Of a stretch of 64,000 bases of DNA, positions 33,317-59,700 are shown piece after piece; the first letter of the stretch is position 1; every line of letters starts with the position of its first letter. Made by a program: the position numbers and the translations under genes. Under the pieces are notes generated by a model. It was given only the letters and a program-made list of their open reading frames with translations. It had not been told where the DNA came from and did no database searches. Source of the stretch: a virus; IMG/VR virus record IMGVR_UViG_3300028920_000002, positions 32,001 to 96,000 of that record. One strand, 5' to 3'.

Positions 33317-33395
33317 GGTTCCGCTTCTCTTATGCCGGTTTCTGCGGGAGAATGACCCCAACACCTCGCCACAGGCGAAACTAAGGAGCATCGAA

Positions 33396-36637: not shown

Positions 36638-36943
36638 ATGAGCCGAACACACCAGGCGATGCAAGTCTTTCGTCGGGAGCTGCGCAGCCGATTCCCTCGT
36701 CTCAAGCGCGCGGCGCACGTAGATGAGCTACTGATAGAGCCAGGCGTACACGGGGAATTCACGCTCGTGTTGCGCTGGTCGCGAGGACCAACCGGCCCGG
36801 GGGAGTACCGCAAGTACTTCAGTCGGCAGTTCGTATTGGGGAGGACGGCTACTGCATCTCCGCTGCAGCAACGGCCGAAGATGAAGACCTGTAGATTCGT
36901 CGACCAGGTAGCGGAGGAAGTTCTCAGAGCAAGAGGTGTCTGA
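36638..36943 (+). CDS. Hypothetical basic protein
   Basis: 101 aa, first gene of a long coupled plus-strand run. Confidence 0.6.
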   Translation: MSRTHQAMQVFRRELRSRFPRLKRAAHVDELLIEPGVHGEFTLVLRWSRGPTGPGEYRKYFSRQFVLGRTATASPLQQRPKMKTCRFVDQVAEEVLRARGV

Positions 36944-37391
36944 AGTACCGGGTGCGGTGAGCACCGTCATATCAGTCGTCTGCAGCCACTTTGGGGTGAC
37001 CCAGTCTTCGCTGCTAGGCACGAGAAGAACGGGCAGCATACCCAAAGCGCGCATGATGGCCTACTTCCTCCTGCGCGAGAGGTTTCAGTACAGCTACCCC
37101 CAGATAGCCGCTGCGTTCAAGAAGGACAGCAGCACTATCATCCAAGGCTACAAGAAGCTCAAGCAGCAGATGCAGAGCGACGTAGACCTAATGGCAGCCG
37201 CAACGCTGCTGATGAAGAAAGTGGAGCGGCTGGTTACCTTGAGCAGCGGTAACGTCATCTATACCACGGTGTCGACCCCGGTGAGGGCGCGCTTGGAGGA
37301 GCTGCTCAAGACAGGGATGTACGGAAACGACCTCGGAGACGTGGTCGAGAGATTGGTGTGTCAGCAACTGCAAGGATTGAAGAGCAAATGA
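36936..37391 (+). CDS. DnaA domain IV (Bac_DnaA_C) HTH fused to a C-terminal ribbon-helix-helix
   Basis: VCSHFGVTQSSLLGTRR...ARMMAYFLLRE...SYPQIAAAFKKDSSTII aligns by eye to DnaA domain IV; VIYTTVSTPVRARLEELL...GMYGNDLGDVVERL is RHH-like. Confidence 0.8.
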   Translation: MSEVPGAVSTVISVVCSHFGVTQSSLLGTRRTGSIPKARMMAYFLLRERFQYSYPQIAAAFKKDSSTIIQGYKKLKQQMQSDVDLMAAATLLMKKVERLVTLSSGNVIYTTVSTPVRARLEELLKTGMYGNDLGDVVERLVCQQLQGLKSK

Positions 37392-44736: not shown

Positions 44737-44773
44737 TTCCTAGCTATCAGTTTGGGGTGTACAATGTACACCC
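44737..44773 (+). promoter_or_regulatory. Sigma70-like promoter overlapped by a perfect palindromic operator
   Basis: TTCCTA-17 nt-TACAAT; GGGTGTACA-A-TGTACACCC (44755-44773) covers the -10 box; RBS AGGAGG follows. Confidence 0.55.
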
Positions 44774-53954: not shown

Positions 53955-54345
53955 GCCGCTTCATCACCCAGGCGGTGGATGCCAGCTCCCCAGCGATGTA
54001 GAACCCGAAGTCGATGTAGAGTTTGATGGCAGCTCGATTCTCTCTACGAACAGTGAGCATGGCTTGCGGCCTGGCGCCCAGGGCCATGTTCAGCATCTGC
54101 CTTGCCAGCCCTCGCCTGCGGAACTCTGGCACCACACCCAGACGAAGTACGTCTACCAGGTTGCCATCCATCGCCGCTAGTAGGTAGCCGATGATTCCAC
54201 GCTGCTTGTCCACAGCCACTAGACCGAAGCCGTACTCGAGCTCGCGGGCAATGGTGGCGGAGTTGAAGCAGTTCTCTCTGAAGAGTTCTATCTCGAGCGC
54301 TTCTAGCTCTTCAGCGTCGTCTTCGGTGGCGTCCCGGATTTCCAT
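53947..54345 (-). CDS. GNAT (RimI-like) N-acetyltransferase
   Basis: Start reassigned to ATG 54345 (MEIRDAT); LRLGVVPEFRRRGLARQML motif A; LTVRRENRAAIKLYIDFGF motif B. Confidence 0.88.
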   Translation of the reverse strand: MEIRDATEDDAEELEALEIELFRENCFNSATIARELEYGFGLVAVDKQRGIIGYLLAAMDGNLVDVLRLGVVPEFRRRGLARQMLNMALGARPQAMLTVRRENRAAIKLYIDFGFYIAGELASTAWVMKRLT

Positions 54346-54388
54346 GAGGTCGTAGTAGCAGAGTGGTATCGGTTGGAGGGTAGATTCC

Positions 54389-54637
54389 GTGGAAAAGCTC
54401 TGGTTCATTATCCGATTCTTCCGCAACGATGAGGAGCTCCCTGACTACGAGCCTGCTGAGGACAAGCGGCGGGTAGAGTCCTGTGTAAACGAGGACATCG
54501 CTCAGTTCAACAGCTTCTTTCAAGGACTTGGTAATGACCCACTCAGCAAGTTCGAGGTCTCTGCTATCAAGACCTACCTCGCCTGGAAACTTGGCCTCGC
54601 TCGGGAGAAGAAAGATGAGCTACCGCCCAGTAGTTGA
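54389..54637 (+). CDS. Small hypothetical protein
   Basis: GTG start; NDPLSKFEVSAIKTYLAWK helix. Confidence 0.6.
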   Translation: MEKLWFIIRFFRNDEELPDYEPAEDKRRVESCVNEDIAQFNSFFQGLGNDPLSKFEVSAIKTYLAWKLGLAREKKDELPPSS

Positions 54638-54935
54638 GTATTCGTGTGGTCGCTGCGCTCGGAAGTGGTACTCGGACCCACCGAAGGAGGAGCAGAAGGG
54701 CCCCGTCGCTCCTACGGTTGCGGTGAGCTACAGCGAGCCGGGAGAGGAGCCCATCGACATCTCGTTCGATGTACTCTGCGAGGGGTGCAAGAACACGGTG
54801 AAGAACCTGGTTCAATCCATCTCCAAGGAAATCAAGGGCAAGAGTCCGGCGCGACGGAAAGGTGGGGCTAAGAAGAAGGAAGAGCCGCGCACTCCTCCCT
54901 CTTCTTCCAAGGCGCATCCGAACCGGATGCCCTGA
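54615..54935 (+). CDS. Zn-finger protein with basic tail
   Basis: Start at ATG 54615; CGRC...CEGC. Confidence 0.65.
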   Translation: MSYRPVVEYSCGRCARKWYSDPPKEEQKGPVAPTVAVSYSEPGEEPIDISFDVLCEGCKNTVKNLVQSISKEIKGKSPARRKGGAKKKEEPRTPPSSSKAHPNRMP

Positions 54936-54936
54936 C

Positions 54937-55638
54937 TCACGCTTGAGCGCGGTCGTTGCGGTAGCGCCGCCGTCCAGCGGGCTTCTTGCGTCGGTAGGAG
55001 CTGTAGTGCCGCTTCGAGCTCGCCGGGCGGAAGACGCGCAGCCGACCGCCGGGCCACGCCACCACGAGCACCGGCACATCCGTATGCTCCGCTGGCTCAC
55101 GGTGCACTCGCAGACTTGAGCCTGGGTACATCTTCACTAGCCAGTGGCAGACGTTGCCCTCCACGCCGTGGTAACCGAAGTGGCCCGTGGACTCACTGAG
55201 GTCGGTGTTCCGCACCAACTCTACACCGGGGTTGTTGGAGAGGTCATGGTAATCACGCTCGATGCGTGGGCCCATGCGCGGGTGCTCCACCAGCTTCTCG
55301 GTGTAGGTGTTCGCTCTCAGGAACACCTTGCCACCGGGCGGGGCCGGGATGGCGATGTGCACCAGAGCGAGCGGGTCACTCTGCCGCGCTTCACGCTTCA
55401 TCGACACCAGGCGGAACGGACCTCGGTCAGCAATACGTGCATAGGGCAGATGTAAGTCCTTACCCTCGGCGTACTTCTCGAAGTCCTCTACCAGCTGACC
55501 ACCAGCCATCAGAAAGCGGTCGGCGATGTAGACACCTACGCCGGCGTCGCCATCACAGATGCGGAGGAATCTCGTATGCGGCTCCGGCTCATCCTCGCGG
55601 AGAGTCGGGTAGTCTTCCGTCACCAAGTAGCACTTCAT
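54937..55638 (-). CDS. Hypothetical protein
   Basis: Start reassigned to ATG 55638 with RBS GAGGAG. Confidence 0.68.
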   Translation of the reverse strand: MKCYLVTEDYPTLREDEPEPHTRFLRICDGDAGVGVYIADRFLMAGGQLVEDFEKYAEGKDLHLPYARIADRGPFRLVSMKREARQSDPLALVHIAIPAPPGGKVFLRANTYTEKLVEHPRMGPRIERDYHDLSNNPGVELVRNTDLSESTGHFGYHGVEGNVCHWLVKMYPGSSLRVHREPAEHTDVPVLVVAWPGGRLRVFRPASSKRHYSSYRRKKPAGRRRYRNDRAQA

Positions 55639-55708
55639 GGTGTCTCCTCTCGTTCTGGGAACGTGGTTCCCACCAGGATTCTTATCCCGTATTCGAGAGG
55701 AGTTTTGG

Positions 55709-55969
55709 TTATGCTGCCGCGGGACGAAGTGCTCCCTCAACTGCATTGACCGCGAAGGACAAAGCAGTCTGGACATCTTCAGTGCTCGCGTCGATGCCCT
55801 TCAGGACACCCAGAGCGACCTCAGCCCCTGCCGGGCTCGAGACCTCAAGCCCACGCAGTTGCTGGGCCTCCTTGGTGTGCCCTGAACGCGCGAGCACGTC
55901 ACGGCACAGCTCAACGCTGATGGTGGCGTTCTCGTAGTTCACTGGGTTCACCTGAGGGATGAGGTACAT
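55709..55969 (-). CDS. Small hypothetical protein
   Basis: 86 aa helical ORF downstream of the AT-rich island. Confidence 0.6.
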   Translation of the reverse strand: MYLIPQVNPVNYENATISVELCRDVLARSGHTKEAQQLRGLEVSSPAGAEVALGVLKGIDASTEDVQTALSFAVNAVEGALRPAAA

Positions 55970-56100
55970 CTCTATTTACAATTTGGTTCTTCTTCCGTGT
56001 ACTTGCAAGAGAAAATCGTCATTGTACTTCAACGGTCAAGTGAACAATCGATGAAGTAATTGGGGCTAGAAGAAGAAAACTCTAGTGTTCACAAGACCTT
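55970..56100. promoter_or_regulatory. AT-rich intergenic island (promoter region or origin unwinding element)
   Basis: Visibly the most AT-rich stretch in the window; TGTACTT direct repeat (55998, 56023), TACAAT on minus strand, GTGAACA/TGTTCAC inverted pair. Confidence 0.5.
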
Positions 56101-56141
56101 GCGCGGGGCGCCCCACGTTGGGACGCCCCGGCACAGTCCGG

Positions 56142-56555
56142 TCACGGCAGCGGGAACGGCAGCACCTTCTTGGCGATGAAGATGAGCGCCACGCCGGCGA
56201 TGGTCATCGCGCCAGCGTTGCACAGCACATCGACGGACCGATGGCCCGCGGCGCGCAGCGCGACTCTCGTCCTGCTCTCGGTCTCGGTGACCGGAGCGGG
56301 GGTGGGTGCAGGCGCGCTCTGAATCGGGGCGCCGTTGCCGGGCTGGGGATTGGTCTGGGTTGCGTCGCTCATGATTCTCTCCTCTGCAGAGTGTGGGCTC
56401 TTTGCCCTTCCACTCTTCTTATCCCGCTTCCTGCGCGGTTTTTGCTCTGGCTGGGGAAGCGCGTAGCCAGCATCTGACAGGGTGTACGTGAGCGGGCGCT
56501 TCTCGGGGTTCCGCTCGTACGTCTTCTTCGACTCTCGTTCTTGAATCTCCGGCAC
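56142..56555 (-). CDS. C-terminally membrane-anchored small protein with two in-frame starts (GTG 56555, ATG 56372)
   Basis: Both starts have RBS (AAGGAG; GAGGAG); TM AGAMTIAGVALIFIA near the C-terminus. Confidence 0.55.
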   Translation of the reverse strand: MPEIQERESKKTYERNPEKRPLTYTLSDAGYALPQPEQKPRRKRDKKSGRAKSPHSAEERIMSDATQTNPQPGNGAPIQSAPAPTPAPVTETESRTRVALRAAGHRSVDVLCNAGAMTIAGVALIFIAKKVLPFPLP

Positions 56556-56760
56556 CGGGTCTCCTTTCCGCGTCCACTTTTGTTATCCCTTCAACCGGAC
56601 GAAGTTTGCGGGAGGGGCGAGCCACAAGAGGGACCGGCAAGCCACACAGTGGCGAACGAGCACTCTGCTCCGCCGGCAGGACCAGCGGTGGAAAGGAGGT
56701 GTGACTCACCCCTCCAGAACTGTTATCCCCACTTCCCTGCTAGCTTTGCGGGGTGGGTCC

Positions 56761-56783
56761 CGTGGTAGAGTTGAGTGGTCATG
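56761..56783 (+). promoter_or_regulatory. Extended -10 promoter for tape measure operon, probably leaderless
   Basis: CGTGgTAGAGT at 56761-56771, 9 nt before ATG 56781; no Shine-Dalgarno. Confidence 0.4.
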
Positions 56784-59700
56784 GTGATGACATCCACCGA
56801 GATTGCTGCGCTCAACGCGGGCTTCCAGCAGCAGACTATGGCCGGCATGCAGCACGCTGGGATGATTAGTCAGTACGCTGCGACGAGAGACCCATCTCAA
56901 GGGGCGGACCAACTGGCGGGCAACATAGTCAACCGAACTGCAGCCATCGGAGCTCCGATGGCTGGACTCGGTATGATGCTGGCCGGGGTAGACCCCATTA
57001 GCATGGGCATCAAAGGCGGCATGGGCGCTGCCGCCATGGGTGCTAGTGGATTCGGAATTGGTGCTGCTGCGCTGGGTGGTGCTGCCGCGGTAGGTGTTCC
57101 GATGATGGCCGCCCAATATGCCGGTGGTCAGATGATGACCGGTATGCAGCAGCAGCAGATGCTGCAAAGCACCATGCGTCAGTACTACCGAGAGCCGAAT
57201 ATGTACGGCCAACTCGGTCCTACTCGAGGTCAGGTGGGGGACATGGGCGCAAGCATGCGCATGATGTCTCAGCAGCGTGGCCCTGGTGGTGAATTCACCA
57301 GTATGGAAGAGCTAGGTCGCCTGGCTGCCAACATGGGTCGGATGGGACTCGACCAGGGCGTGCGCAACGCCAAGGACTTCAACGAGCAGTTCCAGAAGAT
57401 GCTCAAGGCGGTGAAGCAAGTAGCCACCGACCTTGGTACTTCGCTGGAGCAGGCGCAGCAGACCATGGCGTCCATGCGCGCTGCCGGCGTACTTGAGCGT
57501 GGTGGCCAAGTACGCATGGCCGCACAGATGCGGCAGGGGGCCTTGGCGGGAGGCATCGCTACCTCAGAGATTGCGGGCATGGCGATGGTCGGCTCGCAAA
57601 TCTCGAGGATGATTGGTGGGAGGGGAGCCGCTGGTGCAGAAGCGGGCGCCTCTTTGATGACCGACATCGGCGCCGCCCAGCGGGTAGGAGCGTTGAGCGA
57701 AGAGCAAATCTACAACGCTACCGGCCTCACCGGCGCCGAAGGGCGAAGGGCCCTGGCTACCGGGATGATGCAGAATACTGCTCGCTTCCTCAAAGGAGGA
57801 CTGGGCCGGCGCTTCTTGGCATCGGTAGCCGGAGAGAACGGTCAGGTCAACCAAGAGGACATTGATGAGTATCTGGCTGGCGGCGTTGGTACTGGACGCA
57901 CGATGCAGATGGCCGCCCGCAACCTCGGTCGTGTGGGCAGGGCGGGTTTCATCCGAAATGAAGGCAGGTATCGTGGAGAGGCCATGCGCGCCCTGCGTGG
58001 CCAGGGCTCAGCCCTGGTTCTTCGTAGCTGGATGAATCAGCGCGGCATGAACGTCGATGACATGGACGACCGCTCCATGATTTGGATGAAGCGGCGTACT
58101 GGCATGGACTACGAGCAGCTAGAGGCAGCGATGAGTCTGCTGCGCAACCAGACACGCATCTCCATGCGCCGAGAGATGTCTGCGGAGCAAGACCAGAACG
58201 TCCAACGGTTGAATCGTCAGCGCCAGCAGCGCGGTGTTCAGGGAGTCAAGAGGCAGGTAGAAGATTTTCGGGCCAAGGTACAGGGCACGCTTCAACAGAT
58301 GGGCGCTGACTTGTATGAGGGCGCGTCAGAGCTGACTGAGGCGTTCATCAACAAGTTGACCGACAACTACGTCACTTCGATGAACCGCGACGTGACGGAG
58401 ATAGCCAGGGAGCTGCGAGTTGGTGGGGCGGCAGCTCGCCAAGGAGCTCTTGGAGAATTGGGTGTTGGACCTCAAGGTGGCATCCTTGGCTTTAAGCGCG
58501 GGGCTACGCTTGGAGTGGGTACGACTGGTCAGATGGGCATGCGTCAGTTGTACGGTGAAGGACTCACGGGTGGTTACGCAGGGGTGCAAGCTCGCAACCA
58601 ACGGGTCTTCTCTGACGTTGACCGTGCTGGGTTTGCTGGGTCGGATATCGATACCGGCAGCATGGCGAGCGTTCGTAAGGGCTTGCTCGAGTACAACCAG
58701 GTCCAAGACTCCTTCTTCACTGAGCGACACCAGAGTGCACGAGACCTCGGCAAGAAGTACGAGCTGGAGTTCAAGGCGGCTATCGGGTCCCGGGAGATTC
58801 GTGGGCAGCGCATGAATCGTGTGCGCTCATTTCAGTGGTGGCTCTCGGAAAAAGCCAAGACGGACAAGGATGCTGCTGCGCTCTATTCGCAGATACAGGG
58901 TGGTGGAATTGAGGGTAAGAAGAGGGCGGCTGCTATCTATGGAGAGCTTGCTCGTGGTGCCAACGCAGGCGCTGAAGCGCAATTCATGGGCACTCCCACC
59001 CTTGAGGGCATCTATGGTGGAGGAGCATTCCTCACCACGGGACAACGTGAACGGGCGGTCGGTGGCGCGTTTCTTCAGGGACGCCAACTTCGGGAAACCG
59101 TAGTCGAGGCCGAGACCCGAGGGCGCGTAGAAGACGTAGCTGGCGCCTTGGGGGGCGCGGCCGGTACGGTGGCGGAGATTGCCGGTTTCGGCCTGGTCAG
59201 TGCTAGGGAGGGTAAGGAGTTTGGTCAGCGTGTTGCTGATTGGCTCACACCAACAGTGGCCAAGGTCGCCGGTGTTGAGGGGGCGGTCGGTATTACTGGT
59301 CGTGACCGTGCGGCTGTAGGCCGCTTCATGGAGGGTGAGCGCGGTCAGGAGATGATGCGCGCCATGCTGAGCGAGGACCACGCTGTTCGTCGAGCAGCTA
59401 TGGGCCAAGCTGCCACGCGTTTCATGGAGCTGGGTCAACGGATGGAGAAGGCCGGTCTAGGAGGGCTCACACAAGAGGAGCGTACTCAGTACCTGGCTAC
59501 TCAAGGAATGCTGGCGGGCTCGCAGTATGCTGAGATGTTGTCAGAGTATGGCGTGACTTCCCTGGACCAACTATCCGAAGCGGACCGTGAAATCGCTGAG
59601 GGTAGGTTGAAAGAGATTGCCACACGTTGGGGTATGGGAGACCCCAAAGCTGTGGTCAATGCACACGCCACAATGGGCGCAAGTCTCACCAGAGCACAGT

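Follow-up and report, generated by a model that had tools for sequence, protein, structure and literature searches.

The TTATCCC boxes and their locus

Four TTATCCC boxes lie at 55.6-56.8 kb of a stretch of phage DNA, and they are probably elements of promoters that belong to the phage itself. The stretch, which we call the window, is 64,000 nucleotides long (bases 32001-96000) and comes from the complete 186,723-bp record of an uncultured phage, IMGVR_UViG_3300028920_000002. The record ends in direct terminal repeats of ~127 bp and the genome has a mean GC content of 60.5%. Positions are those of the window unless marked as genome positions, and gene calls were made with our own heuristic (240 genes, 93% coding). 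A blastn comparison of positions 54000-58000 with 50,697 phage records gave no match, and the region has no DNA-level counterpart among cultured phages.

A preliminary description of the window proposed two readings of the boxes: an oriC-like origin read by a DnaA domain IV/RHH protein of the phage, or a GGGATAA promoter element serving minus-strand genes. Its four plus-strand decamers are where it placed them, with TTCTTATCCC at 55679 and 56416, TTGTTATCCC at 56580 and CTGTTATCCC at 56720. Their TTATCCC cores start at 55682, 56419, 56583 and 56723 and read GGGATAA in the sense of the minus strand, and the likeness among the local copies extends over 20-26 nt. TTATCCC occurs six times in the window against 2.1 expected, a count reached by 1 of 100 shuffles. 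The boxes were also said to surround the most AT-rich stretch at a strand switch, and both observations hold. The 130 nt from 55965 are the lowest-GC window of the whole genome at 36.9%, the runner-up having 44.6%, and the strands diverge at 56709/56775.

Two further claims stood in part. A start codon was said to follow each box within 10-45 nt; the distances from decamer to start are indeed 41, 44, 25 and 11 nt, but the open reading frame behind the last copy (56419-56709) looks spurious. This frame, 96 amino acids (aa) long and rich in Pro and Arg, overlaps the conserved 137-aa gene and was rejected as a gene. The last copy was also likened to a DnaA box, and its TTATCCCCA is one mismatch from TTATCCACA, but the others read TTATCCCGT, TTATCCCGC and TTATCCCTT. 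Only the last of the four reads TTATCCCCA, and the motif as such therefore does not resemble a DnaA box. The genes and other features of the locus are listed in Table 1.

Table 1. Features of the box locus, with two weak motif copies elsewhere in the window. PWM, score under the genome-wide weight matrix; +1, predicted transcription start.
Feature	Position	Strand	Remarks
Promoter copy P1 (predicted)	56711..56753	-	-35 GCAAA 56745-56749, at canonical offset; -10 GGGATAA 56723-56729; predicted +1 56715; PWM 34.3
Structured ~105-nt RNA (predicted leader or small RNA)	56611..56715	-	Ends just before the -35 box of P2
Promoter copy P2 (predicted)	56571..56613	-	GGGATAA 56583-56589; predicted +1 56575; PWM 42.3, among the genome's best
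Promoter copy P3 (predicted)	56407..56449	-	Within the 137-aa reading frame; GGGATAA 56419-56425; predicted +1 56411; PWM 31.4
137-aa gene	56142..56555	-	38% identical homologue in G004, spanning the part upstream of P3
GC-rich hairpin	56104..56130	-	12-nt arms, 3-nt loop; inverted repeat I13 just past the 137-aa gene stop; terminator-like, no U-tract
AT-rich island	55970..56100	-	Lowest GC of the genome; two TTGnAAGTACA repeats 25 nt apart; no GGGATAA motif
86-aa gene	55709..55969	-	No Shine-Dalgarno sequence; tblastn 56% identity in G004, 46% in G001
Promoter copy P4 (predicted)	55670..55712	-	GGGATAA 55682-55688; predicted +1 55674; PWM 25.6
233-aa gene	54937..55638	-	Behind P4; homologues in G004, G001 and G012
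Weak copy GGCATAA	33318..33360	-	First G 33336; -10/+1 block only (downstream-block score 15.4, -35 score -6.3)
Weak copy GGTACAA	35243..35285	+	First G 35267; 30 nt upstream of an 82-aa gene; PWM 20.7

A bipartite motif across the genome

The boxes are the -10-like core of a 43-nt motif, CnGCAAA, 11 nt, TT, 2 nt, GGnATAA, nAR, 3 nt, YGGA. An ungapped weight matrix (PWM) that started from 13 seeds and was iterated to convergence on the genome found 29 sites, compared with 0.4 in shuffles that keep mononucleotide composition only and one in a reversed-sequence control. The downstream block alone, used as query, gave 35 matches against 3.8 expected. A good upstream (-35) block accompanies 23 matches and sits at the same offset in 21, being shifted by 1 nt in the other two. 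The same signal appears in simpler counts: among intergenic hexamers, enrichment is highest for GGGATA, GGATAA and ATAACA (7-9 fold), and the strict pattern GGNATAAVRNNNNYRG occurs 29 times in this genome and not once in the control.

Numbered from the predicted start, the motif reads C(-36), G(-34), C(-33), AAA(-32 to -30), an unconserved spacer and TT(-18/-17), followed by GG(-14/-13), n, A(-11) T A A(-8), A(-6), R(-5) and Y(-1) G(+1) G A(+3). The A at -11, -9 and -8 is found at all 29 sites and the T at 27. Upstream of this core the bases read nGG(G), where a sigma-28 element has GCC. Position -7 is never T in the 29 sites, so a housekeeping -10 element does not fit and the layout of sigma-28 promoters does.

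A genome-wide scan with position and strand statistics, which had been proposed as a check on the motif, tied it to genes. Shortly upstream of a co-oriented start codon, at 20-76 nt (median 30.5), lie 22 of the 29 sites; random placement would put 3.7% of sites there (P = 3e-26). The sites are dispersed over 1.5-143 kb of the genome, and neither structural block (24-63 kb and 144-182 kb) contains one. In several copies the conserved GGAG doubles as a Shine-Dalgarno sequence. Ten genes that follow motif copies were compared with Pfam; most had no match, and the matches were to DUF6847, a pyrimidine-dimer glycosylase and a collagen-repeat protein. A variant box that had been reported near 33328 was confirmed as GGCATAAGAGAAGCGG, 20 nt upstream of a start codon, and has no -35 block.

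One copy lies 38 nt upstream of the tmRNA gene (genome 143109-143475; copy and gene, L086:3071-3475 (+), genome 143071-143475). The presence of the motif before a non-coding gene favors a role in transcription over one in translation. More generally, a motif with fixed internal spacing that lies at variable distances from start codons and also precedes RNA genes suggests a promoter for transcription and not a signal for translation. The tag encoded by this tmRNA is ANDNATPALAVDKAA, and the placement of the promoter copy predicts a start at genome 143085 and a leader of ~24 nt that would need processing.

Some copies have an unusual setting. Three pairs are divergent and back to back (genome 109945-109996, 118768-118819 and 130919-130956; L084, L085), with the -35 of one abutting the -10 of the other. 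A strong copy at genome 115791 (L084:15776-15791 (-), score 38.2) faces the 3′ end of a tRNA operon on the plus strand. No gene lies within 1.2 kb of this copy, and its transcript may be an antisense or small RNA.

A phage sigma factor and a fused core polymerase

The preliminary description sought a cognate protein within the window, at 36936. The likely reader lies instead outside the window, at genome 103178-103963, where the phage has a gene for a 261-aa sigma candidate. The protein has weak Pfam matches to Sigma70_r3 and r4 and matches phrog_351, "RNA polymerase sigma factor", at 7e-10. In NCBIfam it scores 1.5e-6 and 28.1 bits against SigB/F/G (cut-off 234), and 5.5e-4 and 19.7 bits against FliA/WhiG (TIGR02479, cut-off 189.6). 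Judged by the latter score, which is far under the curated cut-off, the phage sigma is not a member of the FliA/WhiG family. An AlphaFold model built with 30 homologues (pLDDT 86.7) matches B. subtilis SigB and SigA, Streptomyces WhiG, and SigD over its full length with probability 1.00. By its modelled fold, the phage encodes a protein of the sigma-70 family with regions 2 and 4.

A copy of the motif directly precedes the sigma gene itself. The same place in the four closest relatives (L014-L017) holds GGCATAA, GGCATAA, GGGATAA and GGTATAA, with GGAGG 7 nt further on.

The phage also carries a single fused beta-beta′ gene of 2151 aa (genome 23816-30271; L077:317-6772, +), which matches Rpb2_6 at 2.7e-63 and Rpb1 domains 1, 2 and 5. 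It belongs to the structural block and lacks a co-oriented motif copy. The gene is present in 26 of 27 relatives, one per genome, mostly as frames of 2050-2200 aa. The only cultured distant relative is the Salmonella phage Arash, whose sigma is 26.5% identical. Beta, beta′ and the sigma Gp10 were all detected in virions of Arash (PMC10585845), which suggests early transcription by an injected enzyme.

Two other possible components were considered. A 159-aa protein (L009:1207-1686 (+), genome 129205-129684) matches sigma-70 region 4.2 strongly at its C-terminus (37 bits, RpoD-like) and has no region 2. It was weighed as a reader of the -35 block and was not found in 27 relatives, by a search that had no positive control and so shows little. 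Judging from the sequence, its role may be that of an accessory factor or of a region-4 decoy. A search of the genome for a T7-type polymerase (PF00940) gave no match, and neither did its control search; the separate -35 block argues against a promoter of the T7 single-subunit type.

Conservation in related phages

Metagenomes contain 116 homologues of the sigma protein, several of them on contigs of 180-200 kb. Used as query, an alignment of 30 homologues reached 63 viral loci, whereas the sigma protein alone reached none. Every relative considered here was found through its sigma gene. Complete bipartite copies of the motif were found with the PWM in many of these sigma loci, whose sigmas are 27-58% identical to that of the phage, and they persist down to roughly 27-30%. 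Over 26 relatives, the strict pattern occurs 147 times against 26 in the control, often with a strong strand bias. Examples of relatives with their control counts are G005 (11 to 1), G008 (10 to 3), G015 (12 to 1) and G022 (12 to 1).

The locus itself is conserved as well. Homologues of the 233-aa, 137-aa and 86-aa genes are present in G004, G001 and G012, and the orthologous locus in these phages has 3-4 tandem, co-oriented copies over ~1.1 kb. The GGGATAAGA cores are kept and the spacers have diverged.

Genes and RNAs behind the four copies

Downstream of P1, the RNA from 56611 to 56715 folds with a minimum free energy of -57.1 kcal/mol (z -3.9), and none of 200 shuffles folds as well. It forms a closed 16-bp stem with two inner hairpins, and the start predicted for P1 is exactly the first base of the stem. 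An Rfam scan of 55300-57100 found nothing. As folded, this RNA may serve the 137-aa gene as a protective leader or else be a small RNA.

P2 is followed by the Shine-Dalgarno sequence GGAAAGGAGA and by the GTG of the 137-aa gene at 56555, the gene start lying 34 nt downstream. This gene has no Pfam or PHROG match. Inside it, the core of P3, GGGATAAGAAGAG, encodes D-K-K-S in the frame of the gene, and GAGGAGA and an in-frame ATG at 56372 come after P3. If P3 is used, this ATG would give a nested isoform, the C-terminal 76 aa with their hydrophobic tail. The relative G004 (L082:1498-1860) keeps both the internal promoter copy and an internal in-frame Met.

P4 is followed by a 5′ hairpin, GGGAAC-CAC-GTTCCC, and then by the ATG of the 233-aa gene at 55638. 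No family was matched by this gene in Pfam or PHROG. In G004, G001 and G012, the orthologous gene has a promoter copy in front and, at the same place downstream of it, a hairpin with another sequence; a 5′ structure thus seems to be conserved behind P4. The 5′ untranslated regions that carry these hairpins are at 55640-55674 (-) here, and at L082:2351-2430, L080:1388-1470 and L081:1246-1330 in the relatives.

Proposed reading and alternatives

We consider it probable that the TTATCCC boxes are the -10 elements of four tandem, phage-specific bipartite promoters, most likely read by the 261-aa, group-3-like sigma of the phage. The promoter reading of the preliminary description is supported by these data and extended, from an element for minus-strand genes to a bipartite, genome-wide class conserved across a phage family. 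In the proposed mechanism, region 4 of sigma would bind GCAAA, and region 2 would bind and melt GGnATAA and flip out A(-11), as happens at sigma-28 promoters. On the minus strand, the predicted first base of the transcripts is the G of TGGA, at the four positions given in Table 1. P1 and P2 would together drive the 137-aa gene behind its structured leader, P3 would give the nested isoform, and P4 would drive the 233-aa gene. The core enzyme could be the fused beta-beta′ protein of the phage, possibly delivered with the virion, or the core of the host.

Several observations weigh against this reading. The sigma protein is far under the curated cut-offs of every named sigma subfamily, and its region 2 was undetected by Pfam (Sigma70_r2). 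The strict pattern is absent from G018 and G025, and a looser pattern in Arash (8 against 2 in the control) is not clearly enriched. In addition, the co-occurrence of sigma and motif in the relatives is by construction. Because the relatives were selected via sigma, their motif copies show conservation and not specificity, and the link between sigma and motif rests on promoter architecture and on the motif before the sigma gene. That last arrangement raises a difficulty of its own, as a sigma gene placed under its own promoter must first be started in some other way.

A holoenzyme delivered in the virion would solve this bootstrapping problem, although a host core is equally open. It is tempting to go further and view the GGnATAA promoters as sites of a wholly phage-encoded holoenzyme of fused beta-beta′ and sigma, which the virion might carry and inject so that the accessory genes are transcribed at once. 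We put this forward only tentatively.

The reader could also be an alternative sigma of the host, of the FliA/WhiG or the SigB/F type. The phage would then be borrowing a host regulon signal, with its own sigma having another role. The GATAA of the -10 core and the AAA of the -35 block resemble sigma-28 promoters at nearly the same spacing, and a leading GGG is typical of the -10 elements of SigB and SigF. However, the upstream half of the -10 element is GG(G) and not GCC, and the motif is conserved across phages of 43-64% GC, which probably have different hosts. The phage family always has its own sigma, with nearly invariant residues in the recognition helix, and the motif stands before the phage sigma gene. 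We therefore regard a host sigma as an unlikely reader.

There is very little room for the view that the motif is the site of a phage transcription factor, which would activate or repress promoters of another form of polymerase. One candidate is the 151-aa protein at 36936-37391, a genuine DnaA domain IV protein (PF08299, 7.8e-17), and GGATAA is common to GGGGATAA and the complement of the DnaA box. However, the protein occurs in only 2 of 26 relatives. G005, G008, G015 and G022 lack it and are enriched in the motif, and G012 has the syntenic promoter cluster with no such protein. Two blocks at fixed spacing and a conserved Y(-1)G(+1) are the architecture of a promoter and not of a factor site.

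It is just as doubtful that the motif acts on RNA or in translation, as proposed for the start-associated sequences (GGGATAGGAGCCC) of Cluster K mycobacteriophages. The two share GGGATA, and both are restricted to non-structural genes, in one orientation and near start codons (PMC3203893). The use of GGAG as a Shine-Dalgarno sequence in several copies would also agree with such a role. To contrast, the distance to the start codon ranges over 20-76 nt while the internal spacing is fixed, and a conserved block sits 30 nt further upstream. Copies precede the tmRNA gene and a non-coding structured RNA, and the divergent pairs interlock their -35 and -10 boxes.

Finally, the locus could be a replication origin in which variant DnaA boxes flank an AT-rich unwinding element. 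In its favor, no other 130 nt of the genome are as poor in GC as the island, a divergent strand switch lies nearby, and one box is a single mismatch from TTATCCACA. There is no exact TTATNCACA on either strand of the 186.7-kb genome, and only one of the four local copies is within one mismatch. Cumulative GC skew has its minimum at 2 kb, climbs steadily to a maximum at 185.6 kb and does not turn at 88 kb; for phages, skew is only a weak test. With the boxes belonging to a dispersed, gene-oriented family of 29 sites (35 by the downstream block) and not to one locus, with the DnaA domain IV protein missing from 24 of the 26 relatives across which the motif is enriched, and with the conserved position of the island between hairpin and 86-aa gene suiting a promoter or operator, an origin is highly improbable.

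The AT-rich island

The island is not explained by the GGGATAA promoter motif. It follows the hairpin at 56104-56130 and precedes the 86-aa gene, before which a Shine-Dalgarno sequence is absent in three phages. In both G001 and G004, the lowest-GC segment of the locus likewise lies just upstream of the homologue of this gene, and a GC-rich hairpin of different sequence occupies the place equivalent to 56104-56130. The island and these segments share the blocks TCTAGCCCCA and CTTGTCAAGTACA. Scanning of 54800-57000 found no sigma-70 consensus promoter and no intrinsic terminator, so the island has no canonical host promoter.

Most simply, judging from these sequence features, the island would be a promoter or operator of another class, a conserved regulatory spacer. 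Together with the 86-aa gene, it may represent a second class of promoter or operator, or else the gene may be read from a leaderless mRNA. Less simply, the island alone might serve as an origin.

Another short sequence is over-represented in the intergenic DNA of this phage. The palindrome TGTACA occurs there 18 times genome-wide against 5.8 expected (for example at 44758-44771, 60693 and 95750). Before genes it often takes the form TGTACAA or TGTACAC, and in one case it stands 18 nt after TTGACC. The palindrome may be a regulator site, or else the -10 region of a class of host-type promoters.

Significance and comparison with known systems

A search for published promoter analyses of this phage family found none. 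The Arash paper (PMC10585845) never uses the word "promoter", and a literature search for GGGATAA returned nothing relevant. The promoter consensus itself is not previously described. It provides a transcription map for a large uncultured phage family that is known from metagenomes and one cultured distant relative, Arash. The motif marks ~29 predicted transcription units and gives base-level predictions of their start sites, and it tells accessory genes, where it occurs, from structural blocks, where it does not. It also yields a concrete candidate pair of sigma and promoter, the promoter being a handle on which core enzyme the phage sigma serves. If the holoenzyme model is true, this would be the first promoter consensus for a sigma-dependent multisubunit RNA polymerase of a phage, and the phages concerned, of 180-200 kb, form a widespread uncultured family. 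The analysis also disposes of an origin annotation and of a link to the DnaA domain IV protein, both of them false.

The locus shares with the DnaA-box clusters of a bacterial oriC several co-oriented words containing TTATCC beside an AT-rich stretch. It differs in having no canonical boxes, no skew signal and no co-conserved DnaA-type protein, and the word here is dispersed and tied to genes. The start-associated sequence of Cluster K is a 13-bp asymmetric repeat present in 11-19 copies per genome within a few nt of the start codon, and is thought to act in translation (PMC3203893). The phage motif is paired with a -35 block, lies at varying distances from the start codon and also stands before RNA genes. 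The likeness of the two is superficial, their consensus sequences agreeing only in GGGATA.

A close parallel is the sigma-28 promoter. In the open complex of a Pseudomonas sigma-28 promoter, the elements are (-36)TCTAAAG(-30) and (-15)GCCGATAA(-8), with A(-11) flipped (PMC12784957). Like promoters of the FliA/WhiG type, the phage motif is bipartite, with an A-run in the -35 block, GATAA at -12 to -8, an invariant A at -11, about equal spacing and a -7 position that is not T. Its predicted reader is likewise a group-3-type sigma with regions 2, 3 and 4. The two differ in the -35 block, where the phage has GCAAA (-34 to -30) and not TAAAG, its A-run lying 1 nt downstream of that of sigma-28. They also differ in the upstream half of the -10 element, GG(G) and not GCC, and the phage motif has an extra TT(-18/-17), A(-6) and YGGA at the start site. 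On these comparisons the element resembles a group-3 (sigma-28-type) promoter and is not a member of that family, as its consensus differs and the sigma fails the cut-offs.

Phage sigma factors with promoter classes of their own include SPO1 gp28 and gp33/34 and T4 gp55. In those systems, and in jumbo phages with sigmas, a protein of the sigma family redirects transcription to a phage consensus before blocks of genes, as is predicted here. The sequence evidence suggests that the element belongs with these phage-encoded, sigma-dependent promoter classes. A survey of jumbo phages in 2021 described carriers of a multisubunit polymerase without sigma and carriers of sigma without a polymerase (PMC7824862). 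In contrast, the phage family studied here has both a sigma and a fused beta-beta′ polymerase. The virion and non-virion multisubunit polymerases of jumbo phages of the phiKZ/AR9 type are likewise built from phage-encoded homologues of beta and beta′ (PMC7598289, PMC9209446), but these enzymes are split into several polypeptides, work without sigma and recognize short motifs that are AT-rich or on the template strand. The family studied here has a single fused beta-beta′ gene per genome, and the phage adds a sigma of canonical modelled fold and a bipartite -35/-10 promoter.

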